Shown piece after piece: positions 1,703 through 51,029 of a stretch of DNA of 64,000 bases. The notes beneath the pieces were generated by a model. It had not been told where the DNA came from, did no database searches, and saw only the letters and a list, made by a program, of their open reading frames with translations. Position 1 is the stretch's first letter. Each line of letters starts with the position of its first letter. This DNA comes from a bacterium (GTDB lineage Bacteria > Omnitrophota > Gorgyraeia > Zapsychrales > Zapsychraceae), in NCBI GenBank assembly GCA_030429765.1, contig JAUIER010000001.1:129302-193301 (forward strand). Direction: 5' to 3'. A program made the position numbers and the translations under genes.

Positions 1703-1721
1703 CGTGAGTCAAAATCTTAAA

Positions 1722-1756: not shown

Positions 1757-1789
1757 GACCATTTCGATCTCAGCATGTATAATCGATGA

Positions 1790-3304: not shown

Positions 3305-3351
3305 ATAATTCTAATGCTTTAGCCAACATATCTGGAAATTTAGTGGCCGAT

Positions 3352-3738: not shown

Positions 3739-3827
3739 TTCTTCTTCCTATTAATGGTTCTGCACCTTTATCATACCACACATGATGTGAGGACTTCAAA
3801 AAAGGATATGATCTGTCAAATAGTGAC

Positions 3828-4769
3828 TTAGAATTCGGATAGAATTTCAAGAAATTTCTGTCTGTGTAGTAGTTTCATACCATCAAGAAACATCAACTTT
3901 CTTGATCCGTCATTCACATAGTGATGCATGGCGGTTTGGGGACGGACTTTGCGGTTGGAGATCTGATAGTCGGGGCTTAAGCGCGCGCCGTGAAGCCGGG
4001 ACACGATCATCATATTTAATGTCTGCTCATGGCGATTGGGATCGCCATTGTGATTAAGCCGCTGACACTCCCGAAAATATTCCTCGATAAACCGCATATG
4101 TTCGAAGTGGTCTTTCACCCTCATGTAAAATAAACCAGCGTTGGCATGCTCGTTCATCGTCGGACAAAATTTATCACGCAGAAATTTCAGGTCGTAGCTG
4201 TAGGCGTTTTGATAGTCAGACATAAAAAAAGGCTTGCCGGATTCCATGTATCGTATCATTTCTTCCGGATGCTGAAAAAACAGCATGTCGGTATCCAGGT
4301 GAAGGATATATTCACTTTCACAAAAATGAAAACTGTCGAACAATTTGAGGCTGCAGTAAAACCGTGGATTGCGGCGCATCAATTGGCATTCCGGAAAATG
4401 TTTGAGCTGCCCGATGATGTCGGGATCGGCCTGGGCGCGTTCAACGATTTCACATCCAGTAAAATGACGCCGATAGATATCCTTACTCTCCGCGCTCAGG
4501 CTGCCGTCATCATGAACGACCAGTTTCGGAGTTGTCCGGCTGTAATGATAGAACGTCTTTAGGGCCCACAGCGACATATCGAAATCTTCTTCACACGAGA
4601 TGATATGCAGGCCGAAGAGGCCGGGACCGCCGGCCTGGACCGGAGCGGATTGCAGGATCGCCTGATGCGACTCGGTCTTGATCCGGGCAACCTTGCGATC
4701 CTCGATATCCTGATAGGCCCGACGAAGGGGACGGTAAACGCGTTTGAGTGTATTGATCACGGGTTTCAT
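3828..4769 (-). CDS. putative nucleotide-sugar glycosyltransferase (DxD-type)
   Basis: 313 aa, cytoplasmic; HLDTDMLFF resembles the DxD motif of GT-A fold transferases; no precise family recognised. Confidence 0.35.
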   Translation of the reverse strand: MKPVINTLKRVYRPLRRAYQDIEDRKVARIKTESHQAILQSAPVQAGGPGLFGLHIISCEEDFDMSLWALKTFYHYSRTTPKLVVHDDGSLSAESKDIYRRHFTGCEIVERAQADPDIIGQLKHFPECQLMRRNPRFYCSLKLFDSFHFCESEYILHLDTDMLFFQHPEEMIRYMESGKPFFMSDYQNAYSYDLKFLRDKFCPTMNEHANAGLFYMRVKDHFEHMRFIEEYFRECQRLNHNGDPNRHEQTLNMMIVSRLHGARLSPDYQISNRKVRPQTAMHHYVNDGSRKLMFLDGMKLLHRQKFLEILSEF

Positions 4770-34991: not shown

Positions 34992-35726
34992 ATGCGAATG
35001 AAAGCATTAATAGGGACCCTGTGTCTGAGCGGTTTCATGATCGCGGCAGCTCAAGCAGAGCAGACGGTATCCGTGGAATATCTTCCAAGCACGGAAAAAC
35101 GCTACCCAGCGAAGAAAAAATTCTTTCGGCTGCTGGAAGATCATGATCTTCAGGAGCATCAGCGGCCTTACGAGATAATCGGTCGCATCAAGGCGGAAGG
35201 GACCCAGAGCGCGGAGCTGGATTGGCGGAAGCTCGAGGATGTGGCTGGGGCGGAAATCAAGTCGTGGGGGGCTGATGCGGTGATCAACCTCAAGATGACC
35301 CAGATAAATCCTGAGACCGGGGAGCCCTGGGCTGAGGAGCCGGACGCCGAGGCGGACACCCTTTTGCGTCTGGAATGCGATCTTATTGTCTATCAGGACA
35401 AGGATACATACGGTCATATGGGTTTTTGGTACAACAACCGGCTGCAGGGGATAGGCGGGATCCGTATTGAGCAGATTATCCGTGGATCTCCGGCTCATAA
35501 GGCCGGTATTCAGCAAGGGGATATCCTGATGGGTATGGCCGGGGAGAATATCGGGCGGGTTAATATTGAGGAAAAACTGGATTACCGCCGGGTTCAATAC
35601 AAATTGCGGCCCGGTGAAGAGTATCAGCTGTTGATCGATCGGAAATCCCGGCCCAAGGTCATCACGGTCATACCGCGGACGGAAGAAGAGGTGTTTGACT
35701 GGTCCAAGAATCTCGGGGGGATTTAG
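34992..35726 (+). CDS. PDZ-domain lipoprotein
   Basis: signal peptide; PDZ core GIGGIRIEQIIRGSPAHKAGIQQGDILMGMAGENIG. Confidence 0.6.
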   Translation: MRMKALIGTLCLSGFMIAAAQAEQTVSVEYLPSTEKRYPAKKKFFRLLEDHDLQEHQRPYEIIGRIKAEGTQSAELDWRKLEDVAGAEIKSWGADAVINLKMTQINPETGEPWAEEPDAEADTLLRLECDLIVYQDKDTYGHMGFWYNNRLQGIGGIRIEQIIRGSPAHKAGIQQGDILMGMAGENIGRVNIEEKLDYRRVQYKLRPGEEYQLLIDRKSRPKVITVIPRTEEEVFDWSKNLGGI

Positions 35727-35811: not shown

Positions 35812-36045
35812 ATGTCAGAAAATTCATCAAATTCTTCTATACGTACGATCGTCCTCTTTGTGGTCTTTGTGCCGGTAATTGTGTACCTGTTGTATTTTGC
35901 CTACAAGAAGAAAACAGAGTCCGAAGATCGTGCCAATCAATGTGCGGCCGAATGTACCGCTCAGGGATATCAGGGGCATGAATTTCAGTGGGCCATTTTC
36001 ACAGGGCCGCAATGTTCATGCATCGGTGATATTGTTCTAGAGTAG
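35812..36045 (+). CDS. small membrane protein (77 aa) with CAAEC...C...CSC cysteine pattern
   Basis: SD-like AAGGAGAAAAA before ATG; one TM. Confidence 0.3.
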   Translation: MSENSSNSSIRTIVLFVVFVPVIVYLLYFAYKKKTESEDRANQCAAECTAQGYQGHEFQWAIFTGPQCSCIGDIVLE

Positions 36046-36181: not shown

Positions 36182-38095
36182 ATGGGGAAAAAATTCATTG
36201 TCAGAGTGCAAAATCAGTTTATAGTTTGTCTATGCCTTTCGCTGTTTTTTGTCAGCCGTCCCGCAGATGTTCTCGCCGAAAGTAATCCCGCCTCGGCCAA
36301 TTCAATAAAAAAAATACAACTGGATCCAATCATCGTCACAGCCCGACGTGTTTTCTCGGAAAGCGACAGCATTGCCGAAGATGTGGTGATCTATACAGCG
36401 GACGATCTTCACAAGATCGGGGCCCGCGATCTCGGCCAGGCGCTGCAGCATATTCCCGGCGTGGATGTCAGCGTGCGAACACAATTCGGTCAGGCCACCT
36501 CCGTATCGATCCAGGGTTCCGCCTCGCGTCAGGTGTTGGTCATGGTCGACGGAGTTCCTTTCAATACGCAGCTATCCGGTCAGGCCAATCCGACTCGCAT
36601 TCCCGTCGAGCACATCAAACAAATCGAGGTAATCAAAGGCGCGTCCTCCAGTGTCTGGGGATCCAGCCTCGGCGGAGTGATTAATGTCATCACCAAAAAT
36701 ACCGGTGAGACGGAAATTCCTCAGGGGACATTCACTACAAGTTTTGCCGAGTATCGAACGTTCAAGAACAGTTTAAGTCTGAGCGGAAAGATCGGTCAGC
36801 TCGGATATTTTGTATCCGGCAGCTATCTGGATACCGACGGGCCGATGTCTCATACAGATGTCGAAGAGCTCAAGACATACGCCAAGGTTTCCTATCCGCT
36901 GGGGGATTTAGCGGAGGTGATTGCGTCTTTTGGGTACAGCGGGGCGGATGTCCGTTTCGGTGTCAATCCCAACAACCGGATCATCGGACAGCCATACATT
37001 TCGCGTTACGGACAGATGACATTTCAAAGTGAAGATGAGTATGTGCGTTTTAGGATGTCGTTTAAATACAACGATCAGGACGTCATTACAGACATTTACA
37101 ACGCGTCGACCGGCGCGAATGTATCTTCAACCGTTAGCCGAAATCTGTATAAGGGGTTGAGTTTGAGTTCTGAGTTTGATCTGTTCGATGACGACTTACT
37201 TGTCGTCGGCGCGGATTTTGAATGGCAGCGACTCAAGTCCAATAATTTTCTATCTGAGTCCAAGAGTGTTCATGCTCAGGCGCCGTATATCAATTACCGG
37301 TTGCGTTGGGGGCGCTGGGATTTTATTCCGGGCGTACGGTATGATCACAATCAGCAGTTCGGCGAGCAGACAAGTCCGAGTATCGGGATTGTTCACCGGT
37401 TTAATGACCGTCGGAATACCCGGATCCGGCTGAAGGCGTCGCGCGGGTTTAACGCGCCGCCGCTTTTATGGATCTACAATAATGATCCGGGATTATTTGT
37501 CGGTCCCAATCCGGATTTGAAGCCTGAGCGTTCCGACTCTTATCAGATCGGCGTGACATCCGAGCTGACCGAAAATTTGGATTTGGAATTTAATGTCTTT
37601 CGTGCCGATATCCGGGACGCGATTGATCTGATATTTGATTCAACTAATTTTGTATTTGTTCAGCAAAATTTTGAAAAATTTCGTCGTCAAGGCGCGGAAC
37701 TGCTGGTGGATTATTCTATCAGTCCTGAACTATCCGTATATGCCAGCGGGGCATTTACAGACGTGGAAAACCGCGTGACAGGCAAGACGGTTCGCAGTTC
37801 ATCCGCGGCCCGTCAGCGGTACACGTTCGGTATCCGCTACCTGAACCGACGTCATCTGGGAGTCTATTTGTCCGGTTACTACAAACGATGGAGCTCCTCA
37901 GCAAGTTCACAGCCGAATGATCGTAAACCAATATTTGATCTAAAGCTCACCAAGGAATTCAAAGAGATCAAGGATAAAGTCGATCTAGAAGCGTTTCTCA
38001 TCATTCACAATCTCACCAACAGCAAGTATTGGTCTGTCGTGGATTTTCCATTGCCCAGACGCTATTTTGAGGGGGGAATCTCTCTTAGTTTCTAG
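36182..38095 (+). CDS. TonB-dependent outer-membrane receptor
   Basis: plug-domain signatures (IVTARR, TAxDLxKIGARDLGQAL, IEVIKGASSSVWGSSLGGVINVITK), beta-barrel, C-terminal F. Confidence 0.75.
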   Translation: MGKKFIVRVQNQFIVCLCLSLFFVSRPADVLAESNPASANSIKKIQLDPIIVTARRVFSESDSIAEDVVIYTADDLHKIGARDLGQALQHIPGVDVSVRTQFGQATSVSIQGSASRQVLVMVDGVPFNTQLSGQANPTRIPVEHIKQIEVIKGASSSVWGSSLGGVINVITKNTGETEIPQGTFTTSFAEYRTFKNSLSLSGKIGQLGYFVSGSYLDTDGPMSHTDVEELKTYAKVSYPLGDLAEVIASFGYSGADVRFGVNPNNRIIGQPYISRYGQMTFQSEDEYVRFRMSFKYNDQDVITDIYNASTGANVSSTVSRNLYKGLSLSSEFDLFDDDLLVVGADFEWQRLKSNNFLSESKSVHAQAPYINYRLRWGRWDFIPGVRYDHNQQFGEQTSPSIGIVHRFNDRRNTRIRLKASRGFNAPPLLWIYNNDPGLFVGPNPDLKPERSDSYQIGVTSELTENLDLEFNVFRADIRDAIDLIFDSTNFVFVQQNFEKFRRQGAELLVDYSISPELSVYASGAFTDVENRVTGKTVRSSSAARQRYTFGIRYLNRRHLGVYLSGYYKRWSSSASSQPNDRKPIFDLKLTKEFKEIKDKVDLEAFLIIHNLTNSKYWSVVDFPLPRRYFEGGISLSF

Positions 38096-38267
38096 ATACT
38101 CAGATTTTTAATTTGAGTATTTTGAATGACTTTGAACGCTTTTACATTAGTAGGTAGAAAAAAGTCAGTTATTGACCCATTGAAACCATTACAAAAAGAA
38201 ACAAACAAGGCTAGAGTATGATTAAGCTAGTCAGATCAGCCGGTTAACACACCGAAAATATAAATCG

Positions 38268-39920
38268 ATGTCAAAAGCAGGAATCAGAGTAATGATTATT
38301 TGCAGCCTCCTAGTCATGACAGGTTTGGATCCGGAACACGTCGAGGCCACGGATCGAAGACACTTGGCGACGGCAGAATCCTACCATAAGTCAGGGATGG
38401 GCCAGCCTGTGCCCGGTGGGACTTTAGCATGGGGGACGGTGAATGCCCCATCGATTATCAATCCTGTATTGACTGTCACCAGCGTGTCTTCCTCCTTGCT
38501 GGAGTTGCTTTTTGATTCACTGATAAGACTGGATTATCAGGGAAAGTTGGTTCCGGGCTTGGCCAAGTCGTGGACGGTCTCACCGGACAAGTTGGAGTAT
38601 ACCTTTTATTTGCACGAAAATATCTTTTTTCATGACGGACATCCTCTGACCGCGGAGGATGTCAAATTCACCTTTGAGTTAGTGGAAGATCCGGCGGTGA
38701 GATCTCCGAAGAAGTCCAAGCAGGATGATATCGTTTCCTGGACGATTATAGATCCCTACACATTCAAAATCCGGCTGAGTAAGCCGGCGGAAACAGTTCT
38801 CTATAAATTTACCATCGAAATTTTGCCGAAACATATTTTTGAAACGGAGGATATTCGGCTGTCTCGCTACAACTACGCGCCAATAGGTTCGGGGCCTTAC
38901 AAGTTTAACTCCTGGGATCACGACACCAATCAGATCGAACTGGATGCAAATGAACAATATTTTGAAGGACGGCCTAATATCGACAAAATCATTGTCAAAA
39001 CCTATCAGGACAACACTCAGCTATGGACGGCCTTGATGCGAAATGATGTCGATTTGGTGCTATATCTTAATCCGAATGATTTTGAAATTCTGCGTAAGGA
39101 TGGGGCCTTTAAAACCTATGAAATTGCGTGGGAAATGTATCTCGGAATTGCTTATAACCTGAATGATCCCATCTTAAGTGATCAAAGGATCCGCCGGGCT
39201 ATTGCCAAGAGTGTGGATCGGCGTGCGATTTTAGACCAGGTGGGGATGCCGGGACGAATTGCCAATGGTCCGTTCCATCCGTTGTCCATTGGTTTTAATC
39301 GGGATGTCAAGCCGATAGAATATGATCCAGTTGAGGCGATAAGAAGTCTGGAAGAATTGGGCTGGTCGTCCATGGATTATGACGGGATCAGAATGCGGGG
39401 CGATGAAAAGTTTGTCTTACGTTTGCTTGTTGACGCCAGTGATCGAAATTATATGCGGGTAGCTCAAGTCCTTCGTCAACAGTTGTCAGCGGTGGGCATT
39501 CGTCTGGAGGTTGTCCTCTATGAAGATGAGTCTGAGCTGACGGAAGATTTTCTCTCGATGCATCGACCGCAGGCCTGGCTGCGATTCTTTGACGGAACGG
39601 GCCACGACTACAGCGGTAATGGTCCATTGATGAACTGGTTCGTCGATGAGGGGTCCCTGAATCGTTTGTGGGCCTATTCAGATGACCGAGTGCAGGAAAT
39701 TTATGACCAGGGACGGAACACGACGGACATGATCGTCCGTGACAGATTATACAAGCAAGTACATCAGATTATCTATGACGGTCAGCCGGTGCTCTTTATG
39801 TATTTCCCGACGAGTTATCACGCGGTGTCGAGCCGCATCCACAATACGGACTATTTATTCAATATAAATATGCCTGTAAATGTTATAAAAGATTGGCATA
39901 TTCCGGTAAATTCAAATTAA
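38268..39920 (+). CDS. extracellular solute-binding protein, family 5 (Opp/Dpp/Nik-type peptide/nickel binding)
   Basis: 550 aa, signal peptide, family-5 SBP pattern (GTLAWGTVNAPSIINPVL...LIRLDYQGKLVPGLAKSW); no cognate permease/ATPase genes adjacent. Confidence 0.7.
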   Translation: MSKAGIRVMIICSLLVMTGLDPEHVEATDRRHLATAESYHKSGMGQPVPGGTLAWGTVNAPSIINPVLTVTSVSSSLLELLFDSLIRLDYQGKLVPGLAKSWTVSPDKLEYTFYLHENIFFHDGHPLTAEDVKFTFELVEDPAVRSPKKSKQDDIVSWTIIDPYTFKIRLSKPAETVLYKFTIEILPKHIFETEDIRLSRYNYAPIGSGPYKFNSWDHDTNQIELDANEQYFEGRPNIDKIIVKTYQDNTQLWTALMRNDVDLVLYLNPNDFEILRKDGAFKTYEIAWEMYLGIAYNLNDPILSDQRIRRAIAKSVDRRAILDQVGMPGRIANGPFHPLSIGFNRDVKPIEYDPVEAIRSLEELGWSSMDYDGIRMRGDEKFVLRLLVDASDRNYMRVAQVLRQQLSAVGIRLEVVLYEDESELTEDFLSMHRPQAWLRFFDGTGHDYSGNGPLMNWFVDEGSLNRLWAYSDDRVQEIYDQGRNTTDMIVRDRLYKQVHQIIYDGQPVLFMYFPTSYHAVSSRIHNTDYLFNINMPVNVIKDWHIPVNSN

Positions 39921-39944
39921 TTGGCGAAGGGGGTGAATAAATCA

Positions 39945-40067
39945 ATGGGAGAAATCAAAATTATCAATAAAGGCACCGATGATGTTAATCAAATGGCCGC
40001 CTTAGGCTGCTGTTGGCCGCCGGGCACCGAAACGATGGTGCGACCGAACGAAGAGGAAGCCAAGTAG
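39945..40067 (+). CDS. candidate RiPP precursor peptide (40 aa) MGEIKIINKGTDDVNQMAALGCCWPPGTETMVRPNEEEAK
   Basis: Not in the ORF track (below length cutoff). Strong RBS AAGGGGGTG 9 nt upstream of ATG. Sits 34 nt upstream of the radical-SAM/SPASM gene. Charged leader-like N-half and a Cys-Cys-Trp-Pro-Pro core. Confidence 0.45.
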   Translation: MGEIKIINKGTDDVNQMAALGCCWPPGTETMVRPNEEEAK

Positions 40068-40101
40068 TATTCCATAGATATGCTGGGGCACGATTCTTTT
40101 A

Positions 40102-41550
40102 GTGATCCCGCATAGGCCGACCTCAAAAGAATTTTGCTCCAGCATGTTTACAAATTCTTTATCAAGGAAAGATATGCAATTTTCCAGTCATACTATTATT
40201 GTTGAACAGTATCCTCAGCCCGACGAGCACCTGCTGTACAACACACGGACCCAGGCCCTGGTCAAGATACCGGCCGCTGTTAAGACGGCGATTGAGACAT
40301 ATGACTCGTCGGAAGTCAGCGCGGTATCGCGCTATCAAGAAGATCTGGATGTTCTTTACCGGATGGGTCTGATCGTAAACAACTTGGAGGAAGATCTACA
40401 GAGAATCAAAGATCACATGCGGCAACTGAAATCTTCCGTGGATCGCAAATCATTTCCGGTGACACTGCTGACAACATACGCCTGCAACTTAAAGTGCAGT
40501 TATTGCTTTGAAGAGTCATCGAGGACCAACGAAAAAATGCCGCCGGATACTCAGCAGCAGGCCATGACATGGCTCAAGAGCAAGCTCATCGAACAGCGTT
40601 ATCAGAAACTATATTTGACGTTTTATGGTGGTGAACCATTGGCTAACAAGCCGGCGATTAAAACAATAGCCACTCATATGCAGCAATGGTGCCGCGACAG
40701 GGGAATCGAGTTTAATTTCATGCTGCAGACCAACGGATATCTGATGACGCCTGATTTGATCCGTCAATATCTCAAGCTGGGACTTAATCAAGTCCGAATT
40801 TCCGTTGATGGAGTGGGGCAGGAGCATGATAAGTACCGACCGCTTCGAAAAGGTGGTGGATCATTTGATGTCATCATGAAGAATATCCTTGATTGCTGCG
40901 ACCTGGTCCTCATTGGGATTTCCGTCAGCTATGAAAAAGGCCAGGTTGAAAAGATAGATCGCCTGTTCGATTATCTTGATGATCTAGGTATATTACACAA
41001 GCTCGGGCGGTTTTTATTTTCGCCGATCCACGCGACACTTGGTCCGGAAGGCCATCCGGAGTACATTCAGAATTCCAGCTGTATGTGCAATTATGACGAT
41101 CAGATGCTGGTCGAATCGCAGCGGAAAATAAATCGTTATATGCAGCAACGCGGTTTGCCGATGCGAAGCGGTATGTCCACATCTGTTTGCCCGGTAACGC
41201 GTGATGAAGCAGGAATAACCATCGACCAGAAGGGATATCTTTATAAGTGTAATTCCATGCTTGGTCACAAAGAATTTTCGACAGGACACGTATCGGAAGC
41301 CGAGTACAACGAGCGTCATCAGGAATTCTTGGGGCTGGATGTCTGGAAGCAGTGTCCGGTCGATTGCACGTACATGCCGATGTGCAGCGGCGGCTGCCGG
41401 CTGTCTTCATTTTTGAATAATCAGCATTTTAATCGGCCCACATGCCATAAGCCTTATTTAAATCGTATGGCGAGGGAATTTATCATTAAAGACTATGAAA
41501 GGATTATGACTCAACAAAAGGAGATTCAGCAGGAGCAGATAGTCAGATAA
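40102..41550 (+). CDS. radical SAM / SPASM-domain peptide-modifying enzyme with N-terminal RRE-like extension
   Basis: CNLKCSYCFEE (CX3CX2C); C-terminal auxiliary-cluster cysteines CPVDCTYMPMCSGGCR (SPASM); about 115-aa N-terminal region before the rSAM core. Confidence 0.8.
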   Translation: MIPHRPTSKEFCSSMFTNSLSRKDMQFSSHTIIVEQYPQPDEHLLYNTRTQALVKIPAAVKTAIETYDSSEVSAVSRYQEDLDVLYRMGLIVNNLEEDLQRIKDHMRQLKSSVDRKSFPVTLLTTYACNLKCSYCFEESSRTNEKMPPDTQQQAMTWLKSKLIEQRYQKLYLTFYGGEPLANKPAIKTIATHMQQWCRDRGIEFNFMLQTNGYLMTPDLIRQYLKLGLNQVRISVDGVGQEHDKYRPLRKGGGSFDVIMKNILDCCDLVLIGISVSYEKGQVEKIDRLFDYLDDLGILHKLGRFLFSPIHATLGPEGHPEYIQNSSCMCNYDDQMLVESQRKINRYMQQRGLPMRSGMSTSVCPVTRDEAGITIDQKGYLYKCNSMLGHKEFSTGHVSEAEYNERHQEFLGLDVWKQCPVDCTYMPMCSGGCRLSSFLNNQHFNRPTCHKPYLNRMAREFIIKDYERIMTQQKEIQQEQIVR

Positions 41551-41565
41551 TCGTCAGGTTGACGT

Positions 41566-43296
41566 ATGTCCTTTACCCGGATCCTGAGGCCCTTTAGCGC
41601 CCGGATACAATGCATTATATTGTGCATTTTTTTCTCAAACGCGATGGTCATGGTGATGCCCTGGGGTATCAAAATGATCGTCGACGGTCTGCAGGCGCGC
41701 GGAGGGATTGAGGTTATCAATTGGGTCGTTGGGGTCATACTCGCGGCTACTATTATCAGGGGTATTCTGAACTATCTGAAAAATGTTTTCAGCCATAGCG
41801 TAGGGGAGCAATTGATATGTCGTATGCGTGAAGAGATTTATGATCACGTCCATCAATTGCCGCTGGCGGAGCTGCAACGGATCACACCGTCGAGGATCCT
41901 GACCCGTCTGACGGGGGACCTGGACAATCTGCGACGATTTTTGTTCTGTGATATTGTCGAGTTTATTTACGGGGCGTTGAGTATCCTCTTGATATTTTCA
42001 ATCCTGATGATTATCAACGCACGTCTGACGTTGGCGGCCTTGCTGTTCTATCCGGTTTTTCTGGTCATGTATTTCCGAAGGATGCCGCTATTAAAACAGC
42101 ATTATCGTGGAATCAGAGAGCATTGGGGAGAAATTTCGTCCCGGATTAACGAAGTCATTCAGGGGATGCCGACCGTCAGAAGTTGCGGGGCCTATCGGCA
42201 CGAAATGGCACGCTTATCGGAACGGCACGGTAATCTCATCGAAGATTCGATGCAGGCGCATCGTCTGAACATTCGGCTGGGCGGACTGGCCGAATTTGCG
42301 TCCACCTTGGGAATTCTGACGGTGCTTTGGCTAGGCTCACGGGATGTACTGGCCCAACGGATGACGGTGGGAGAATTGATTGCGTTCTATTCGTATATCG
42401 GGATGCTGTTCGCGCCGTTGATTCGCATGGTGATGATTAACACGTCATATCAGGAAGCATCGGCGGCGTTGGATCGAATCAATCACATTTTGGAATGTGA
42501 TCGACTGGCTGACGCGGCCAAGCCTCTGGAAGATGATTACCGGTCGGGGGGACGTGTTGTCTTTGACAGTGTCTCATTCGGGTATGATCCGCCGGTGAAT
42601 GTGGTTGAGAATCTGAATTTTTGTATTCAGCCGGGGGAAAATGTGGGTATCGTCGGCGTCAGCGGTGCGGGAAAGAGTACGCTGATCAATTTGCTGCTCG
42701 GGTTTTACCGGCCGCAATCAGGAAAAATCCTGCTGGATGGTCGTACCATCGAAGACATGGGAGCGGCGACGTATCGTCAGCAAATGGCTGTGGTTTTGCA
42801 GGACTCGTATATGTTCAGCGGAACCATCCGTGAGAATATCGCGTACGGACGTCCTGAGGCTGATTTTTTGGAAATCCAGATGGTGGCCGAGATCGCGCAA
42901 ATCGATGACTACATTCGGTCGTTACCTCAGGGGTACGAAACGAAAGTCGGTGAACGCGGCCTGAATCTGTCAGGAGGACAGCGGCAGCGGATGGCTATCG
43001 CGCGGGCATTGCTGCGTAACCCAACGGTGTTGATTCTCGATGAGGCCACGTCCGCGTTGGATGCCATGACCGAAAATCGGGTGCAGCAGGCTCTCAGCCG
43101 CTATATGCGCGGCAAGACCATGATCACGGTGGCGCACCGTTATTCGACGATCATAGAGACGGATCGGATTATGGTGATTGATCGGGGACAAATCGTAGAG
43201 AATGGTACACACGATCAGTTGTTCGGTCTCAAGGGAATATATTACAAGATATACTCGGAACAGTTTAAGGATAACGATATACCAGTACCTTCATAA
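41566..43296 (+). CDS. ABC transporter, fused permease/ATP-binding exporter (no peptidase domain)
   Basis: 6 TM + Walker A GVSGAGKST, signature LSGGQRQR, Walker B LILDEATS. Confidence 0.85.
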   Translation: MSFTRILRPFSARIQCIILCIFFSNAMVMVMPWGIKMIVDGLQARGGIEVINWVVGVILAATIIRGILNYLKNVFSHSVGEQLICRMREEIYDHVHQLPLAELQRITPSRILTRLTGDLDNLRRFLFCDIVEFIYGALSILLIFSILMIINARLTLAALLFYPVFLVMYFRRMPLLKQHYRGIREHWGEISSRINEVIQGMPTVRSCGAYRHEMARLSERHGNLIEDSMQAHRLNIRLGGLAEFASTLGILTVLWLGSRDVLAQRMTVGELIAFYSYIGMLFAPLIRMVMINTSYQEASAALDRINHILECDRLADAAKPLEDDYRSGGRVVFDSVSFGYDPPVNVVENLNFCIQPGENVGIVGVSGAGKSTLINLLLGFYRPQSGKILLDGRTIEDMGAATYRQQMAVVLQDSYMFSGTIRENIAYGRPEADFLEIQMVAEIAQIDDYIRSLPQGYETKVGERGLNLSGGQRQRMAIARALLRNPTVLILDEATSALDAMTENRVQQALSRYMRGKTMITVAHRYSTIIETDRIMVIDRGQIVENGTHDQLFGLKGIYYKIYSEQFKDNDIPVPS

Positions 43297-43298
43297 AA

Positions 43299-45041
43299 AT
43301 GAAAAAGATACAGAACGTAATCAATAAATTATTTCCACGTGAAATTTCACTGCAGATTTTCGTGGTGCTGGCCCTACTGGTTGTTGTTCCATTGGTGCTC
43401 CTGGGTTTACTGTTGATTAACACGAGTCAGAACGCAATTCAGACAACCGTGTTGCGGGATCACCAGGAAGTGGCCACGCACGCGACAGGCGCGGTCAAGG
43501 AGCATGTGCGTGCCGCCCAGGGCACGATGAAATTGACGGCCTCCATACTTGGTGCATTGCATGCGGATCCTTGGCGGCAGGAGACCGTCCTCGTCGAACT
43601 CGCCATGCGAAATTCGTCATTTGAGCGGGTGTCCACCATCGATTTAAACGGGAGAGAGCTGGCGACGTCTTTCCTGGGCTCGCCATTAAGGGATATCTCG
43701 GACAGAGAGGGATTCAAAGCGGCGGCACGGGGTGAAGCGTATATCGCTAAGGTGCGTATTTCGCCTGAACATGAGCCGTTCGTCGAACTTTACGAACCCA
43801 TTCTTCAGTTTGGACGCGTTTCAGGGGTTCTCTCAGCAAGGTTTAATCTGCGAAGTGTCTGGAATATTGTCGACGGGATACATTTTGGTGAAACCGGACA
43901 TGCCTACTTGATCGACGGGGAACGCCGGATTATCGCCCATCCGGACAAGAAGCGGGTACTTCAAACCGTCGGAATGGACTTTTCGGAGCCCACCAGGGGA
44001 GAGTCGCAGCATGAAAACCTGTTTAATCCCAATGACTGGCTGTTGTCCCGGGCATCGATTCCCGAACTAAACTGGACCCTGGTGATCCTTCAGCCTAAAC
44101 GGGAAGCATACACATTTATATCAACGATGCGCGATCAATCATTGATTCTGATCTTATTGGCGATTGTCGCGACGATTGTTATCAGCCGGTTACTCTCCAA
44201 ATTCATGAGCCGTCCACTTCGGACATTAATCGAAGCGACCGAACATGTTGCTAACGAAGATTTTGATTATCGATTGCGAATTCCCCGTCGGGATGAGTTT
44301 GGTAAATTATTTTACGCCTTTAACAAGATGATCGCTCGTATTGATGAAGGGCGGCGGATGCAAAAGCTGTCTACCATCGGTAGTGCCGCGACCGCCATTG
44401 CCTATGAGCTGAAAAATTCATTAGTCGCCGTGGATACGTACATCCAGTTACTGCCCGAAAGGCATAAAGATAGACAGTTTATCGAAGATTTTTCGCGGAC
44501 AGTCCCGCAGGAATTAAATTCCTGGAAGAATATGCTTGTGAATATTACCGACTACGCGAAGTTTTTGCAGTTTAGCAAACACGATGTGGATATCAATGCG
44601 TTGGTCCGGGATGTGGCCACTTTGGCGAAACAGCGGGCCAAACAAAAAGGGGTTGATTTTGAGATGCATATGGATCAGTCATTGCCGTGCATCAACGGAA
44701 ATGAGGCCAAGCTTAAGCAGGTGTTTTTGAACCTGATCAATAACGCCTTGGCCGCCACGCCGGAGGGAGGCAAAATTTGCTTTTCCACAGACCTGGTGGG
44801 AGCGTCGGATGATCCCAATTGTTCGCACGTCCGCGTGACGGTTAAGGATACGGGTGAGGGGCTGTCATCGGATGAGTTAAAGAAAGTTTTTGAACCATTT
44901 TATACCACTAAACATGATGGATTAGGATTAGGACTCTCCATTAGCAATGAGATCGTGATGGCCCATGGAGGCCGCATGGATGTGGAGAGCCAAAAACAAA
45001 AAGGGGCGGCATTTACCGTACAAATACCAACAGCAGTTTAA
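43299..45041 (+). CDS. membrane sensor kinase of NtrB-like type with periplasmic sensor domain and HAMP; phospho-acceptor His replaced by Tyr
   Basis: 2 TM flanking a ~230-aa periplasmic domain; HAMP; DHp box reads AIAYELKNSL instead of AHEIRNPL; intact N box (NLINNALAAT), G1 (DTGEGL), F (FEPFYTTK), G2 (GLGLGLSIS). Confidence 0.7.
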   Translation: MKKIQNVINKLFPREISLQIFVVLALLVVVPLVLLGLLLINTSQNAIQTTVLRDHQEVATHATGAVKEHVRAAQGTMKLTASILGALHADPWRQETVLVELAMRNSSFERVSTIDLNGRELATSFLGSPLRDISDREGFKAAARGEAYIAKVRISPEHEPFVELYEPILQFGRVSGVLSARFNLRSVWNIVDGIHFGETGHAYLIDGERRIIAHPDKKRVLQTVGMDFSEPTRGESQHENLFNPNDWLLSRASIPELNWTLVILQPKREAYTFISTMRDQSLILILLAIVATIVISRLLSKFMSRPLRTLIEATEHVANEDFDYRLRIPRRDEFGKLFYAFNKMIARIDEGRRMQKLSTIGSAATAIAYELKNSLVAVDTYIQLLPERHKDRQFIEDFSRTVPQELNSWKNMLVNITDYAKFLQFSKHDVDINALVRDVATLAKQRAKQKGVDFEMHMDQSLPCINGNEAKLKQVFLNLINNALAATPEGGKICFSTDLVGASDDPNCSHVRVTVKDTGEGLSSDELKKVFEPFYTTKHDGLGLGLSISNEIVMAHGGRMDVESQKQKGAAFTVQIPTAV

Positions 45042-45059
45042 TCCAGACGGGGAAATAAT

Positions 45060-45785
45060 ATGTTATGTGACAAGATCATGGTGGTCGACGACGACCCGCG
45101 AATTATCGCCGGTATCAAACTGGTCCTTAACGAGTACGAGATTGTCGGGTTTCGGGATGGCCGAAGCGCGCTTGAATATTTATCCAAGCCCAACGAAATC
45201 CGCTTTGTATGCCTGGACGTGTATCTCAACAATGAAAATGGTTTGGACATCCTCAAAGAGATGAAGCGCATCAATCCGAATCTGATTGTCCTGGTGATGA
45301 CGGCCTTCGGATCGATGGATGTGGCGGTTCAGGCCTTGCGGTATCACGCCGATGACTTTATAGAAAAACCGTTCGATGTCGAGGATCTCAGACAGAAAGT
45401 TAAAAATCACATCAAGAACACATCGTTTCTGGACACCATGGCCAATGACCAGGATCATCGTATTGAGCGGATCCGGACGTTTGTGGAACGAAACTACACG
45501 AATGTGTCGTTAGAAACAATTGCCAACGAAATGTGTTTGAGTGAAAAATATGTCAGCCGGATGTTCAAAAAGAAAAATAAGACCAGTTTCCGTACATACA
45601 AACTGGACTTGAAGATTGAACGGGCCAAAAAGTTGCTGGAAGAGACATCCTATAACGTGACCCAAATATCCGAACAATTGGGATATCAGAATCCGGAATC
45701 ATTTATGCGCATCTTCCGCAAACTAGCAGGGATGACACCGACGCAGTACCGTAAGTCCGTCAAGAATCAAAAGGCGGGGTCCTGA
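45060..45785 (+). CDS. response regulator with CheY-like receiver and C-terminal AraC-family HTH
   Basis: VVDDD, FVCLDVYL (phospho-Asp), VMTAFG, FIEKPF; AraC HTH region (LSEKYVSRMFKK...GYQNPESFMRIFRKLAGMTPTQYRK). Confidence 0.8.
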   Translation: MLCDKIMVVDDDPRIIAGIKLVLNEYEIVGFRDGRSALEYLSKPNEIRFVCLDVYLNNENGLDILKEMKRINPNLIVLVMTAFGSMDVAVQALRYHADDFIEKPFDVEDLRQKVKNHIKNTSFLDTMANDQDHRIERIRTFVERNYTNVSLETIANEMCLSEKYVSRMFKKKNKTSFRTYKLDLKIERAKKLLEETSYNVTQISEQLGYQNPESFMRIFRKLAGMTPTQYRKSVKNQKAGS

Positions 45786-45786
45786 T

Positions 45787-46170
45787 ATGGAAGACAAGAT
45801 TTTGGTGATCGACGCTCATCCGGTATACATCCAAAAGTTGGACGCCTTCGTGCGCGGTTTGACATTTCAACATATCCGTTTGGCGGCTTCGGCCCATGAA
45901 GGGTTGAGCCTGGCCGAATCCTTTCAGCCCGATATTGTCCTGATGAGCGGGATTTATCCGGACCGGGACAGCCGCGAGACGCTGCGTGAACTCAAGCGGA
46001 TCTGTCCGCAGGCGCGGGTCATCGTGCAGGTAGGGTTGCTCACCGAGCACGACGCCATCGAAGCGTTCAAAGACGCAGGCGCCATGGCCGTCTTAATCCG
46101 CCTGGAAAAAAATCTAGCACCTCTCCAGGATGCCCTGGAGCAGGCCCGCCTGCAGAATTCTCCTAAATAA
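45787..46170 (+). CDS. receiver-like single-domain protein with degenerate phosphorylation site
   Basis: CheY-like fold by spacing (KILVIDAHP, DIVLMSGIYP) but the Asp57-equivalent aligns with Ser and the second acidic-pocket Asp is Ala. Confidence 0.5.
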   Translation: MEDKILVIDAHPVYIQKLDAFVRGLTFQHIRLAASAHEGLSLAESFQPDIVLMSGIYPDRDSRETLRELKRICPQARVIVQVGLLTEHDAIEAFKDAGAMAVLIRLEKNLAPLQDALEQARLQNSPK

Positions 46171-47073: not shown

Positions 47074-49155
47074 ATGCCGCAAAAATTTCTCATTCCAAGC
47101 TTGATAGCCGTTCTGTTGCTGAGCGGCTGTTCAACCTTACCGACATTCTCTCCCCGAGTTCAAAAGCGAACAGCCGCTTTTTGGCTGCAGCAATCCGTGA
47201 ACACTGAAATTGTCGACGCCCGCGTGGCAGACGAGAAAGTCTGGTTGACTTATCACGTTTTTACGGCTGATAGTGATACGGCACAGTTGTTTTATGCACG
47301 CAGTGATCGGATTCAGGCGAATGATGATCCCAATCACGGGCTTGTCATTAGGGATCGTCCTATGAAGTTTCTCTCACCGCAGGATTGGACTGCGGGTAGC
47401 GAAGACGGCGTGCCGGTGGCGATATGGTCGTCGTCGCGCTGGGCTGAATTTATCGGTGAATTTGCCGATGCGATGGCTCCAAGCGATATCAATCATGGCG
47501 TCGTCGTCCGTGACGGGTTACATGAACTGATTTTCTTTCGCGATGTGGACGGACAGACTTCAATTACGGATATCAAAAACAAGCCTGGCCATGTCGCAAT
47601 TGATCAGGTGCTCAGTCAGTCGCAGTATGCTGAAAAGATATCGGCTTCCCTACAGCAGTTTGTGAGTGCCAGATCCATTGCCGATCGTCGATTTATCGTC
47701 GTGGCCGATGACCGGCGTTCGGACGGCCGGATGTTTACCTATATTGATATGGATCGCGGTGCGGGACTGGGGTTGACCGTCCCGGCAGCCAAACAATCCA
47801 AGGGTATCGGCGGCTCGGTCGCCGGAGGGGTCAAGACCGCGGATCAGCTGATTCTCGACGGACAGATGGTTGGAATTGCGACCCGGCCGGTCTCATCAAT
47901 GTTCCGTCTGTATTCGTGGGCGAAGGACACCACGCTGCATACCATTAAACCGCGTCGGATGGTCCAGCAAATCGTGCCGAGCGGACCCCCGCCGCCGATC
48001 GCTCAGCGTGAGGGAATGGATCTCGATGAATTTGACCGCGAACTGGATCGTCTGATCGGGCGTCCGGCAACGAAGGGAACGGTGAAATTTTATATCGGTG
48101 GCGATCAGTATTTTCCCCGCCAGATCGAGGCATTTCAAAATGCCCGCGAATCCATCGATGTACGGATCTTTATTTTCGACAATGATGATTACGCGGTGAA
48201 GATCGCGGACGTCCTCAAACAACGCTCGCGCGATGGCGTTCGGGTCCGGGTGTTGATCGACGGCATCGGGCGGATTATGGGCGAGGGTTCAGTTCCCGAG
48301 GGAATGCCGGCCGGATTTAAACCGCCGGCGTCGATGGTCAAATACCTGAAGAAAGGATCCAATATCGAGGTCCGTGTCCGTCCCAACGCGTGGTTCAAGG
48401 CCGATCATACCAAGGCCATTACGATTGACGGCAAGCTCGCTTATACCGGCGGGATGAATATCGGCCGGGAATACCGTTATGACTGGCATGATCTGATGAT
48501 GCGGGTGGAGGGCTCGATTGTCGACGAGATTCAGCATGAATTTAATATCGCCTGGGCACATGCCGGGCATCTAGGGGATATCGCGTATCTGGCACAGAAA
48601 GTTAACGGCGTCAAGCGGCATGACAGCGTGAATGAAGGGATCAGGATCCGTCCGTTGTACACGCGGGCGGATAATCCGCAAATCTTTAACGCGCAAATGG
48701 CCGCGATTCGCAAGGCCAGGAACTATATCTACGCGGCCAATGCCTATTTCTCCGATCCGAATATCATCAGCGAGCTCATCAAGGCGCGCCGGCGCGGTGT
48801 CGATGTCAGGGTTATCCTGCCGGTCAACGGGAATCATGAGATCATGAACAAGAATAATATCGTGATTGCGAACCGGCTTTTTGCGAACGGCGTGAAGGTT
48901 TATTTTTATCCCGGCATGAGCCATGTTAAGGCGGCGGTTTACGACGGATGGTTATGCACCGGTTCAGCCAATTTTGACAAGCTCAGTTTTATTGACAATC
49001 TGGAATTCAATCTCGCCATATCCGATCCCGCCACTGTTGATCAAATCGTCGAGGATTTATTCGAAGCCGACTTTAAAAAATCCGCGTTGATGACGGCGCC
49101 TTTAAAGAGCAATATCCGAAATCTGCTGGCCACGGTGCTGGCCGGTCAGCTCTAG
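47074..49155 (+). CDS. phospholipase D / cardiolipin synthase-family lipoprotein with ~330-aa N-terminal extension
   Basis: lipobox LLSGCS; two HKD motifs HTKAITIDGKLAYTGGMNIG and HVKAAVYDGWLCTGSANFD. Confidence 0.75.
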   Translation: MPQKFLIPSLIAVLLLSGCSTLPTFSPRVQKRTAAFWLQQSVNTEIVDARVADEKVWLTYHVFTADSDTAQLFYARSDRIQANDDPNHGLVIRDRPMKFLSPQDWTAGSEDGVPVAIWSSSRWAEFIGEFADAMAPSDINHGVVVRDGLHELIFFRDVDGQTSITDIKNKPGHVAIDQVLSQSQYAEKISASLQQFVSARSIADRRFIVVADDRRSDGRMFTYIDMDRGAGLGLTVPAAKQSKGIGGSVAGGVKTADQLILDGQMVGIATRPVSSMFRLYSWAKDTTLHTIKPRRMVQQIVPSGPPPPIAQREGMDLDEFDRELDRLIGRPATKGTVKFYIGGDQYFPRQIEAFQNARESIDVRIFIFDNDDYAVKIADVLKQRSRDGVRVRVLIDGIGRIMGEGSVPEGMPAGFKPPASMVKYLKKGSNIEVRVRPNAWFKADHTKAITIDGKLAYTGGMNIGREYRYDWHDLMMRVEGSIVDEIQHEFNIAWAHAGHLGDIAYLAQKVNGVKRHDSVNEGIRIRPLYTRADNPQIFNAQMAAIRKARNYIYAANAYFSDPNIISELIKARRRGVDVRVILPVNGNHEIMNKNNIVIANRLFANGVKVYFYPGMSHVKAAVYDGWLCTGSANFDKLSFIDNLEFNLAISDPATVDQIVEDLFEADFKKSALMTAPLKSNIRNLLATVLAGQL

Positions 49156-49222: not shown

Positions 49223-50518
49223 ATGAAATTCTGCGCAGATGTTCATGTCCATTCCTATTATTCCCGCGCGACCAGCAAAAATCTCAATCTTGAATATCTG
49301 AATTTATGGGGACAGATCAAAGGGGTCGATGTCATCGGAACCGGAGATTTTACCCATCCGGCATGGTTTGCCGAGATCCGGGACAAACTCGAACCCGCCG
49401 AGGAAGGGCTGTTCCGTCTGAAGCCGGAATTTGCCGCGGTGACCCGTGATCAAGTTCCCCGTGCCTGCCAGCGTGATATACGGTTTATGCTCACCGTTGA
49501 GATTTCCAACATTTACAAACGTCTGGATCGTGTTCGAAAAGTTCACAACTGTGTATTCGCCCCAAGTTTTGACGCCGCCGGTCGTATTCGTCAGTCCCTG
49601 GATAAGATCGGTAATCTTAAATCCGATGGTCGTCCGATTTTGGGATTGGATTCGAGAGATCTATTGGAGATTGTTTTGGAATCTGATCCATTGAGCTATT
49701 TGATCCCGGCGCATATCTGGACGCCATGGTTTTCTGCGATGGGATCCAAGAGTGGTTTTGATCGGATGACGGACTGTTTTGGCGATCTATCCGATCATAT
49801 TTTTGCGGTGGAAACTGGTCTGTCTTCGGACCCGCCGATGAATTGGCGGCTCTCGCAACTCGATCCATATGTGCTTGTCTCGAATGGCGACGCGCATTCT
49901 CCCGGTAAACTGGGACGTGAAGCGACGCTGTATGATACCGAACTGTCTTACCCGGCAATCTATGACGCTCTGAAAAATCATAACACCAATCCCGGTCTGA
50001 TCGGCACGATCGAGTTTTTCCCCGAGGAAGGCAAATATCATTATGACGGACATCGGGCGTGCCAAACGCGCATGCATCCGCGCGATACAAACAAGCACGA
50101 CGGCAAGTGTCCGGTCTGTCAGAAGCCGGTCACCGTCGGTGTGATGGCGCGGGTCGAAGAGTTGGCGGATCAGCCGGAGGGACGTAAGTCGCCGAACTGG
50201 CGGCCGTTTTTCAGTTTGATCCCTTTACCGGAGATCATCTCCGAGGTCGTCGGGGTCGGTCCGAACAGCAAGCGTGTTCAAAAGATCTATTTTGAAATGC
50301 TCAACGCCTTGGGCAGTGAGATGTTTATCCTGATGGACTGTCCGATTGATCAGATTCGGCGTCATTCCGAAGGGCTGATTGCGGAGGCGATTCAGCGCAT
50401 GCGAACCGGTGATGTTAATATCGCCTCAGGATACGATGGAGAGTTTGGAACGATTCATATATTTTCAGACCAAGATCGGGAGGCGCATGCCGCGGCCGAA
50501 CAGCTTACCTTGTTTTAA
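49223..50518 (+). CDS. PHP-domain protein, endonuclease Q-like
   Basis: N-terminal ADVHVHSYYSRATS (PHP metal-binding His motif), later H/D ligands, and a CPVCQKP zinc-finger-like element, as in EndoQ/TIGR00375-type proteins (from memory). Confidence 0.5.
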   Translation: MKFCADVHVHSYYSRATSKNLNLEYLNLWGQIKGVDVIGTGDFTHPAWFAEIRDKLEPAEEGLFRLKPEFAAVTRDQVPRACQRDIRFMLTVEISNIYKRLDRVRKVHNCVFAPSFDAAGRIRQSLDKIGNLKSDGRPILGLDSRDLLEIVLESDPLSYLIPAHIWTPWFSAMGSKSGFDRMTDCFGDLSDHIFAVETGLSSDPPMNWRLSQLDPYVLVSNGDAHSPGKLGREATLYDTELSYPAIYDALKNHNTNPGLIGTIEFFPEEGKYHYDGHRACQTRMHPRDTNKHDGKCPVCQKPVTVGVMARVEELADQPEGRKSPNWRPFFSLIPLPEIISEVVGVGPNSKRVQKIYFEMLNALGSEMFILMDCPIDQIRRHSEGLIAEAIQRMRTGDVNIASGYDGEFGTIHIFSDQDREAHAAAEQLTLF

Positions 50519-51029
50519 TAAACTTTTCGGATGCGGACTTGTTTTGATGCTGATAAGTTTGACGGGATGTGGGCGGACGGTCTTGAAGTCACATGAATGG
50601 CACACGTCGCCGGAGCACTGGCCTCAATCCAGGATTTATCACACACCTTTTCAATCGGAATTTGCATCACGCATTAAATTGGATCAGGCTCCGTGGCCCG
50701 GTAATCAGGCCGGCATTCGTTCGCCTAATCAGGCCTACCGGTTTTGGACAGGGCCGGTCCATCAATCAGTGAATGGATGGTGGTCGACGACGATCTATGT
50801 TGATCATGAGCGCGATCACGCATTGACAATACAAATCATCGACCACAATCAATGGAATGTTCAGGCCGCATGGATCAATGAAAAATTATTGTATGTGTCG
50901 GTCTGGTGGGGAAGGATTGTCGGCAGTTATTTTATCGTCGATGTTGAACGTGAAAAGATCATATTCAAGGAAATGATGCATGACGGACACATTGCCTATC
51001 AACAATTCCGTAACGCCGCAGCTCAATGA
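50487..51029 (+). CDS. hypothetical lipoprotein (start uncertain)
   Basis: ORF overlaps ends of both neighbours; lipobox-like LISLTGCG; Trp/His-rich. Confidence 0.35.
   Translation: MPRPNSLPCFNKLFGCGLVLMLISLTGCGRTVLKSHEWHTSPEHWPQSRIYHTPFQSEFASRIKLDQAPWPGNQAGIRSPNQAYRFWTGPVHQSVNGWWSTTIYVDHERDHALTIQIIDHNQWNVQAAWINEKLLYVSVWWGRIVGSYFIVDVEREKIIFKEMMHDGHIAYQQFRNAAAQ

Follow-up and report, generated by a model that had tools for sequence, protein, structure and literature searches.

A radical-SAM peptide cassette of Omnitrophota with its own outer-membrane receptor, binding protein and kinase: a possible TonB-gated autoinducer loop

The 64,000-nucleotide stretch of an Omnitrophota contig analysed here (the window) carries at 36182-46170 a set of co-directional genes in which a 40-residue (40-aa) precursor of a ribosomally made peptide with post-translational modifications (RiPP) and its radical-SAM (rSAM)/SPASM maturase stand together with a TonB-dependent receptor (TBDR), an orphan substrate-binding protein (SBP), an ABC exporter and a two-component system. 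Comparison with related loci shows a divergent sister branch of the geopeptide family, and the persistence of receptor, SBP and kinase beside the peptide is the strongest evidence that these three may act on the peptide itself. We tentatively favour, with rather less than even confidence, an autoinducing peptide loop of quorum type in a diderm bacterium, gated by TonB. A first-pass annotation of the sequence had noticed the cassette at 38268-46170, and that observation is confirmed as real, with coordinates and domains as described, save that the interval holds seven genes where eight had been counted; the eighth member is the TBDR just upstream, which had been omitted although no model for a diderm can do without it. 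The elements are as follows.

36182-38095, + strand: TBDR, 637 aa (Pfam PF07715 and PF00593)
38268-39920, + strand: family-5 SBP, OppA/AppA/NikZ-like, orphan (PF00496, 258 bits)
39945-40067, + strand: precursor peptide, 40 aa, MGEIKIINKGTDDVNQMAALGCCWPPGTETMVRPNEEEAK (ribosome-binding site, RBS, and conserved homologues)
40075-40150, + strand: long stem-loop directly 3' of the precursor stop (minimum-free-energy, MFE, folding)
40174-41550, + strand: radical-SAM/SPASM maturase, 458 aa (PF04055 and TIGR04085)
41566-43296, + strand: ABC half-transporter exporter (ABC_membrane PF00664 and ABC_tran PF00005 only)
43299-45041, + strand: sensor histidine kinase with dCache_1, HAMP and HATPase_c (Pfam)
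45060-45785, + strand: REC-AraC response regulator (PF00072 and PF12833/PF00165)
45787-46170, + strand: stand-alone pseudo-receiver, 127 aa, REC only (PF00072, 35.6 bits)

Domains were assigned by Pfam and NCBIfam profile searches. In the open reading frame (ORF) list every gene of 36182-46170 lies on the + strand with tight spacing, the intergenic gaps from the SBP to the pseudo-receiver being 24, 106, 15, 2, 18 and 1 nt. The flanking genes (a PDZ protein, DUF3108, a pyrophosphatase and a PLD-like protein) are unrelated and vary between loci, so that the unit would span from the TBDR to the receiver-only protein, and these nine elements might form a self-contained apparatus for RiPP production and perception, a grouping that we put forward tentatively. 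Genome and metagenome scans with rSAM patterns returned about 25 relevant loci among the matches listed, of which 14, the window with L001-L005 and L082-L089, are close. The hosts of this close clade, marked by the motif CCWPPG, are mainly Omnitrophota metagenome-assembled genomes (MAGs), with Planctomycetota and Auribacterota, and the order TBDR, SBP, precursor, rSAM, ABC, kinase, REC/AraC and pseudo-receiver recurs in it with few changes, the ABC gene being absent from L083 and L004 and the TBDR moved in L089. The TBDR lies upstream of the SBP or precursor gene in 11/11 close loci that extend that far, and downstream in L089. The arrangement is far beyond chance, the same order being found in contigs of three phyla, Omnitrophota, Planctomycetota and Auribacterota, at 30-85% protein identity. 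In the Omnitrophota MAG contig L005 (8400-12000) the SBP, rSAM and ABC genes are split across frames in tblastn, which probably reflects long-read assembly indel errors, not pseudogenes.

The peptide itself had been proposed as an unannotated 40-aa ORF with a strong RBS; the RBS is there (GGGGGTG, about 9 nt upstream of the start), but the exact protein is already held in an NCBI-derived protein set as P0121. Against the closest relative locus, L087, whose rSAM protein is 85% identical to that of the window, 12 codons of the precursor differ, 10 of them synonymously and 2, both leader substitutions, non-synonymously, and this excess, with the strong RBS and the conserved homologues, indicates that the ORF is a true gene evolving under purifying selection. 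Profile searches yielded about 90 distinct homologues (44 peptides in a collection of 5.8 billion sequences and 48 representatives in a library of 1.84 billion), all of 30-50 aa and named at most 'hypothetical protein', while Pfam and NCBIfam gave no match to the 40-aa and 48-aa forms of the peptide or to its divergent relatives, except for the sub-threshold TIGR04229 match of one relative. A small ORF with adjacent cysteines lies directly upstream of the maturase gene in 14/14 loci with rSAM identity of at least 36%, and the RBS AAAGGAGGT precedes most of the precursor ORFs in the close loci. The first-pass proposal of an rSAM/SPASM RiPP cassette with a short precursor thus agrees with the comparative record, and the RiPP interpretation is well supported; the annotation had named as grounds for doubt the case that maturase homologues are never flanked by a conserved small ORF, and CC(W) ORFs do flank them.

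The precursor consensus is MEIIxxGTDDxxxMAALSCCWPPGTE, with the variation ME-I-I-x-x-G-T/S-D/E-D-x-x-x-M/L-A-A-L-S/G-C-C-W/F/Y-P-P/A-G-T/S-E, and it resolves into a conserved leader (EIIxxGTDD...MAAL), the Cys-Cys pair, the segment WPPGTE and a variable acidic tail that often ends in P-E-x-E. Ahead of the cysteines stands L-(S/G/N/Q), mostly Gly or Ser and not GG, and over 44 + 39 homologous peptides, distant members included, only G10, C22 and C23 are invariant. Conservation of the leader and of CCWPPGTE, beside variability of the C-terminal tail, fits a biosynthetic handle followed by a specificity region. One protein of the representative library, P0309 (144 aa), holds three tandem precursor-like repeats (LLLIRQGTCDISEVLATCCCWYGKEH...) and represents a multi-core precursor or else a tandem array of genes read out of frame.

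Directly after the precursor gene, the hairpin at 40075-40150 folds with an MFE of -35.8 kcal/mol (z = -4.35; 0/200 shuffles fold as well), and a stable hairpin with z <= -2 occupies the same position in 14/15 loci folded, window included, L003 being the exception. Its position is conserved and its sequence is not; the hairpins of L009 and L010 carry U-tracts, and an Rfam scan of the whole window gave no match, so the element is not a known RNA family. Hairpins placed after a precursor gene are the usual device for over-producing precursor mRNA, and the present one is probably a leaky terminator or a transcript stabiliser that raises precursor mRNA relative to that of the enzyme genes.

The maturase ORF as listed opens at GTG 40102; ATG 40174 (MQFSSH...), which is preceded by AAGGAAAG, is where the TIGR04280 profile begins, and with it the 458-aa protein P0001 and every homologue. 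The start is most likely ATG 40174, giving the 458-aa protein, and probably not GTG 40102. Its description as an rSAM/SPASM enzyme is borne out by PF04055 (67.7 bits) and by the SPASM domain TIGR04085 (44.3 bits, cut-off 27). Across 25 homologues the CxxxCxxC cluster motif (C104/C108/C111) is invariant, as are six of the seven SPASM cysteines (C339, C359, C394, C398, C404 and C408), the remaining one, C424, being conserved in at least 90%. For the RiPP recognition element (RRE) suspected in the N-terminal extension, an AlphaFold2 model (mean predicted local distance difference test, pLDDT, 89.9) does place a beta-beta-beta-alpha-alpha-alpha fold of RRE type at residues 7-87, but no PqqD/RRE profile matched the protein.

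The curated family that matches this enzyme best by far is TIGR04280 ('geopeptide radical SAM maturase'), where it scores 283.9 bits (cut-off 400) over profile positions 1-424 of 428; the next NCBIfam matches, TIGR04463, CefB, PapB and FlmE/OhkG, are all far below threshold. That sub-threshold score, together with the homology between the window peptide and geopeptide precursors (example MKEERIIIIDEGIDEVNPDGWQACCWGPLFAFRG), makes the window system a divergent sister branch of the geopeptide family. The maturases of L009 (Nitrospiraceae) and L010 (Desulfobacteraceae) pass TIGR04280 with 514 and 566 bits, and three more geopeptide loci came from the homologue search, where the NCBI name is again 'geopeptide radical SAM maturase'; that search counts at least 2,071 maturase clusters at E <= 1e-60, and clusters number at least 2,000 in Desulfobacterota and hundreds in Omnitrophota. 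The precursor model TIGR04229 (22 positions, cut-off 30) did not match the window peptide at E <= 10, and the best peptide of the CCWPPG clade reached 15 bits (E 0.017), below that cut-off. Geopeptide is a curated hypothetical-equivalog family known as a database definition only, and literature searches returned no paper with 'geopeptide', TIGR04280 or the core motif and no description of such a system in Omnitrophota or Geobacter. The first-pass view of an undescribed class goes too far, the system being a below-threshold sister of the curated but uncharacterised TIGR04229/TIGR04280.

The two branches share a maturase homologous over its full length, a short precursor with an 'I-I-x-x-x-G' leader, about 11 residues, the invariant CC, an aromatic or small residue and Pro/Gly, a hairpin after the precursor gene, and, in the window and 5/5 geopeptide loci, a TBDR immediately upstream, accompanied by an adjacent orphan SBP and histidine kinase. 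In the five genuine geopeptide loci the TBDR is always present, ahead of precursor and maturase, and the SBP gene is translationally coupled to the kinase gene; this SBP is of the PF04392 type, whereas that of the window is PF00496. They differ further in the core (CCWPPGTE with an acidic tail in the window, CCxGPhxxFR(G) in geopeptide), in regulation (REC-AraC with a pseudo-receiver as opposed to sigma-54 AAA+ activators or hybrid kinases), in the ABC exporter, which the window cassette has and the geopeptide loci lack, and in their hosts, which for geopeptide are Desulfobacterota and Nitrospirota rather than Omnitrophota, Planctomycetota and Auribacterota. In the Desulfobacterota-type locus L169, nine tandem identical geopeptide precursor genes (MKEERIIIIDEGIDEVNPDGWQACCWGPLFAFRG) lie at 5309-6741 with a 166-nt period between TBDR and maturase, where gene callers predict overlapping ORFs of 71 aa instead; this repetition indicates high-dosage secretion. 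The distant loci L090 and L108 (31% identity) have their genes reordered, with a family-5 SBP directly before the kinase and no recognisable precursor beside the maturase; at L090 9350-9700 the TBDR and the maturase are separated by an inserted small ORF of antitoxin-like type (MATNLALDDKLIIQAQKVGHHKTKKEAV...) together with a PIN-like fragment.

These relatives bear most directly on what the peptide is for. Receptor, SBP and kinase persist through gene shuffling and non-orthologous replacement, from which it would follow that they act on the peptide itself and that sensing ends in the periplasm; the comparative pattern argues for import-gated periplasmic sensing of the peptide as the conserved function. 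The SBP has no permease or ATPase partner in any cassette of the roughly 25 loci listed, which supports periplasmic sensing over cytoplasmic import and agrees with the orphan, family-5 protein that the first-pass annotation had placed first in its interval. The same pattern weighs on a different account, in which the peptide is an effector, such as an antimicrobial or a factor in predation or competition, and the TBDR, SBP and two-component system respond not to the product of the cassette but to some outside cue, for instance a nutrient or a foreign peptide, that turns production on. Bacteriocins are numerous among rSAM RiPPs and are often made under two-component control, triads of TBDR, periplasmic protein and kinase occur alone, as with the TBDR, DUF4154 and CHASE8 kinase of L082, and the exporter could double as immunity; nevertheless, receptor, SBP and kinase follow the peptide/rSAM pair through reordering and replacement across phyla, the cassette contains no immunity gene, a producer with an uptake receptor dedicated to a toxin would make itself sensitive, and the geopeptide branch is without the exporter, and we consider an effector role improbable.

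The product of the maturase can be narrowed by comparison with characterised enzymes. In Foldseek, CteB (5wgg/5why) came out on top over the full length, N-terminal domain included, followed by SuiB, TigE and the anaerobic sulfatase-maturating enzyme (anSME), which aligned over 386-396 columns only and without the N-terminal domain; a PDB sequence-profile search ranked CteB (E 2.5e-29) above anSME (5e-18). An anSME identity, named at the outset as what would overturn the RiPP assignment, was rejected on TIGR03942 (75.7 bits against a cut-off of 349.45) and on this weaker PDB match, and the cassette has no sulfatase gene; by sequence and predicted structure, the enzyme resembles the thioether-forming peptide maturases more than anSME. 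With CteB (PDB 5wgg), PapB and QhpD it shares an architecture of putative RRE, rSAM and SPASM and a Cys-containing substrate. None of the ranthipeptide or sactipeptide models was passed (PapB 138.6 against 340, SCIFF 99.8 against 425, RumMC 62.9 against 720), nor was QhpD (108.7 bits against 453), and the window system differs from ranthipeptide/SCIFF systems in a peptide with two cysteines only, adjacent to each other, as well as in these maturase scores below the family cut-offs; to our knowledge, ranthipeptide clusters do not carry a TBDR or SBP.

Judged from its nearest characterised relatives, CteB, PapB and QhpD, the product would most likely bear one or two thioether cross-links on the Cys-Cys pair and be ranthipeptide- or sactipeptide-like, and the C23-x4-T28 spacing (i/i+5) equals that of the Cys-Thr link in CteA. 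Superfamily-wide, no acceptor residue is conserved besides CC. Triceptide or cyclophane chemistry is less likely, since the YhhB and GrrM models score 60-70 bits, below the thioether families, and the superfamily does not always keep the aromatic residue that follows CC. A cofactor role of the PQQ or mycofactocin-like kind was rejected, as further tailoring enzymes are lacking and an exporter and a receptor are present. A live alternative is a thiooxazole such as SbtM makes on Gly-Cys. SbtM, an rSAM/SPASM enzyme from Geobacter/Desulfobacteria, forms thio(seleno)oxazole from a Gly-Cys motif (PMC9204691), and the selenobiotic system to which it belongs is alike in enzyme type, in habitats and phyla, and in a Cys/Sec that follows Gly in a short Haft-predicted precursor (PMC9204691); it is unlike in that the window precursor has no selenocysteine and that the SbtM family is outside the best 25 NCBIfam matches of the maturase.

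Of the transport proteins, the TBDR is predicted to have a Plug and a 22-strand barrel of CirA/BtuB type, CirA and BtuB being also its best PDB matches. The SBP is the fastest-diverging protein of the cassette, with 67% identity between the window (38268-39920) and L087 (1524-3224), compared with 91% for the TBDR (partial), 85% for the rSAM enzyme, 81% for the ABC protein (partial) and 95% for the peptide, whose core is unchanged. Its best PDB matches are CcNikZ-II (8efz), AppA (1xoc) and CjNikZ (4oet), and its near neighbours in NCBIfam and PDB include NikA/Opp5A, CntA and NikZ. NikZ-type Ni(II)-binding family-5 SBPs are marked by a double-His 'HH-prong' (bioRxiv 10.1101/2022.10.03.510666). 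The window SBP and five orthologues contain no HH dipeptide at any position (0/6), and with the prong missing from all six a NikZ-type nickel SBP was rejected as its identity; AppA, a nonapeptide binder, aligns equally well over the whole length of the protein.

The exporter has the transmembrane and nucleotide-binding domains (TMD-NBD) of an MsbA/McjD-like protein, its best NCBIfam matches being MsbA-related and all below cut-off. As the first-pass annotation had stated, it lacks a C39 peptidase domain, Pfam finding ABC_membrane and ABC_tran only, so that it does not correspond to a peptidase-containing transporter (PCAT) acting on a double-glycine leader. It is present in 12/14 close loci, L004 and L083 being those without it. 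The 'ABC' match near 14752 in L169 belongs, as its ATPase, to an unrelated SBP_bac_1/BPD_transp_1 importer and lies more than 6 kb downstream. The cassette encodes neither a membrane-fusion nor an outer-membrane partner for its exporter.

These transport genes invite a second, serious reading, which we think less likely than the autoinducer loop and on the whole unlikely: a RiPP metallophore, chalkophore- or nickelophore-like, in which the Cys-Cys pair becomes a metal-binding unit (a thiooxazole or one free thiol) and the secreted peptide scavenges a thiophilic metal in sulfidic habitats. By the same scheme the holo-peptide would be taken up by the TBDR, bound by the SBP and sensed in the periplasm by the two-component system, which would turn the operon up. 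The methanobactin operon, with the MbnA precursor, the TonB-dependent transporter MbnT, the family-5 SBP MbnE and the exporter MbnM, follows the same logic, with a short Cys-containing RiPP precursor beside a TBDR, an orphan family-5 SBP and an exporter, and with no inner-membrane importer; AraC-type regulators, moreover, commonly govern siderophore systems. Also in favour of a metallophore are the nickel- and metallophore-related neighbours of the SBP, the invariance of two adjacent core cysteines that usually follow Gly or Ser, SbtM acting on Gly-Cys (PMC9204691), and hosts that are mostly anaerobes. The window enzyme, however, is rSAM/SPASM and not MbnB/MbnC, the domains of which (DUF692 for MbnB) are absent from the cassette genes at 36182-46170 and from eight flanking ORFs that were scanned; the exporter is ABC and not MATE, regulation is two-component and not by sigma/anti-sigma factors, and the 60 best PDB matches of the window SBP do not include MbnE. 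An inner-membrane importer is found in none of the roughly 25 loci listed, and the missing HH-prong, the equally good AppA alignment and the distance from SbtM count against this reading as well. Those characterised maturases that stand nearest use up the thiol in forming thioethers, a chelating function is hard to see for the long, variable acidic tail, which fits a specificity determinant better, and no Fur, Zur or NikR-type regulator is adjacent.

Among the signalling proteins, the kinase is ordered as a transmembrane segment (TM), a periplasmic dCache_1 domain, a second TM, HAMP, the dimerization and histidine phosphotransfer domain (DHp) and HATPase_c, with AtoS as its closest NCBIfam match. 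The REC-AraC regulator, recognised as such in the first-pass annotation, has a canonical receiver (DDD, D53, T, K) and an AraC-type helix-turn-helix (HTH) output, and is conserved in L002, L005 and L082-L085. In the last protein, described earlier as receiver-like, the phospho-acceptor Asp is replaced by Ser and the second acidic-pocket residue by Ala or Gly in 5/5 orthologues, which identifies a pseudo-receiver. The earlier description of the two-component proteins as 'atypical' holds for this pseudo-receiver, but the kinase is canonical in 10/10 homologues and departs from them in the window only, where its H-box reads AYELKNS, the phospho-accepting His being replaced by Tyr369 (TAT at 44403-44405). 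All ten other orthologues of the 11-sequence alignment have AHELKNS, and H369Y is a single-base change (TAT against CAT/CAC). The Logan contig L081, from an independent pipeline and the only second assembly, is base-identical to the window over 13.5 kb and may come from the same reads.

The substitution raises the question, orthogonal to the models of function, of whether the cassette is decaying or signal-blind in this genome, H369Y abolishing autophosphorylation; we hold this to be quite improbable. It is suggested by the Tyr that stands alone among the orthologues, a single base away from His, and sensor-loss variants are common in quorum-sensing populations; against it, the rest of the cassette is intact, comparison with L087 shows purifying selection on the precursor, the Tyr could be a consensus or assembly error, with L081 perhaps from the same reads, and some kinases work as phosphatases or scaffolds without the His.

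In the autoinducer loop that we favour, the precursor would be co-transcribed with the receptor and SBP genes and the hairpin, an observed element with a presumed role, would keep its mRNA in excess. The putative RRE domain would bind the EIIxxG leader while the rSAM/SPASM enzyme modifies Cys-Cys, and the C39-less, McjD-like ABC half-transporter would then move the peptide across the inner membrane. Peptide that has accumulated outside would be actively re-imported into the periplasm by the dedicated TBDR, captured by the orphan SBP and presented to the dCache kinase, which would phosphorylate REC-AraC and so activate the operon in a positive feedback, and possibly other genes, with the pseudo-receiver modulating the response. 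The model is plausible, with comparative support, and the autoinducing circuit first proposed from this single locus is strengthened by the conservation of receptor, SBP and kinase across the family, but remains an inference.

Parts of this scheme have counterparts elsewhere. With PfeA and PfeS/PfeR, enterobactin crosses the outer membrane via a TBDR before a periplasmic kinase senses it and up-regulates the operon, and SBP-assisted kinases are represented by LuxP-LuxQ, TorT-TorS and ChvE-VirA; as in these two kinds of system, the ligand proposed here would cross via a TBDR or bind an orphan SBP before it is detected by a membrane kinase. The proteobacterial lasso clusters of astexin type, which have a TBDR and an isopeptidase, together with microcin J25 and its McjD/FhuA pair, resemble the cassette in a C39-less ABC half-transporter, in uptake by a TBDR and in a producer that encodes its own receptor and regulator, with a function that is still debated. 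The lasso clusters are unlike it in belonging to another RiPP class, in having no SBP and in their FecI/FecR-type regulation. We know of no system that joins TBDR gating and an SBP-assisted kinase with a self-made ribosomal peptide.

Several points weigh against the favoured loop. No published experiment on any member of the family was found in the literature, and we know of no precedent for peptide quorum sensing via a TonB-dependent receptor; TBDRs and family-5 SBPs are classic parts of nutrient and metallophore uptake, and Ni-binding NikZ proteins account for two of the SBP's three best PDB matches. Neither a route across the outer membrane nor a leader peptidase is encoded in the cassette, a half-transporter by itself would take the peptide no further than the periplasm, and the neighbourhoods of the five geopeptide loci, like L083 and L004, contain no exporter. 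In the present genome, H369Y represents either a disabled perception arm or a consensus error, and if real it means that the loop may not work here.

Between 35700 and 46700, sigma-70 promoters (18 found, 15.9 expected from shuffles) and terminators (14 found, 10.4 expected) did not exceed expectation, and the search for AraC-site-like direct or inverted repeats upstream of the receptor and SBP genes gave weak two-copy matches only. Just upstream of the TBDR gene lie a 77-aa membrane-anchored Cys-rich protein (…CAAECTAQGY…CSCIGD; 35812-36045) and a secreted PDZ-domain protein (34992-35726); small genes like these were seen in the close relative L086 and in no other loci, and are thus not counted as cassette members. 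Downstream, 47074-49155 encodes a 693-aa lipoprotein-like protein with two PLD-like domains and a weak DrmC (DISARM) match in PADLOC (45 bits); it is probably an enzyme of the cardiolipin-synthase or nuclease family with no relation to the cassette. At 49223-52515, about 3 kb downstream of the cassette, a 431-aa MJ0043_C-like protein is followed by a GajB-like UvrD helicase (PADLOC GajB, 269 bits); the same MJ0043_C-like/UvrD pair stands directly after the geopeptide maturase in L169 (8581-11725), and the two genes may be a Gabija-like defence pair, the 431-aa protein itself having no GajA match. In L082, from an Omnitrophota genome, a second triad, TBDR, DUF4154 and CHASE8 histidine kinase, with a receiver, occupies 61-4137 immediately upstream of the CCWPPG cassette, which suggests that these bacteria make repeated use of periplasmic sensing modules coupled to a TBDR.

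In summary, most known radical-SAM RiPPs are bacteriocins of Gram-positives or products under quorum regulation, and peptide signalling is rare in diderms because the outer membrane blocks peptides. Here a precursor/maturase pair appears to be wired to an outer-membrane importer, an SBP and a kinase, in a wiring that outlasts the replacement of its parts in at least five phyla-level lineages. It is conceivable, although we think it somewhat unlikely, that the cassette and its geopeptide sisters represent a new kind of diderm cell-cell signalling, in which a radical-SAM-cross-linked Cys-Cys RiPP autoinducer, of a size that porins do not admit, is pumped into the periplasm by a dedicated TBDR and relayed by an orphan SBP to a histidine kinase. 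If the peptide is the ligand, the arrangement would solve in a general way the problem of sensing peptides across an outer membrane and would give a function to a large, named-but-unstudied geopeptide family; if it is a metallophore, anaerobes would have in it a radical-SAM counterpart to methanobactin. The system is small, with a precursor of 33-40 aa and one enzyme, and easy to reconstitute, and since its Omnitrophota hosts are uncultured, the cassette is one of few handles on their social or metal physiology.

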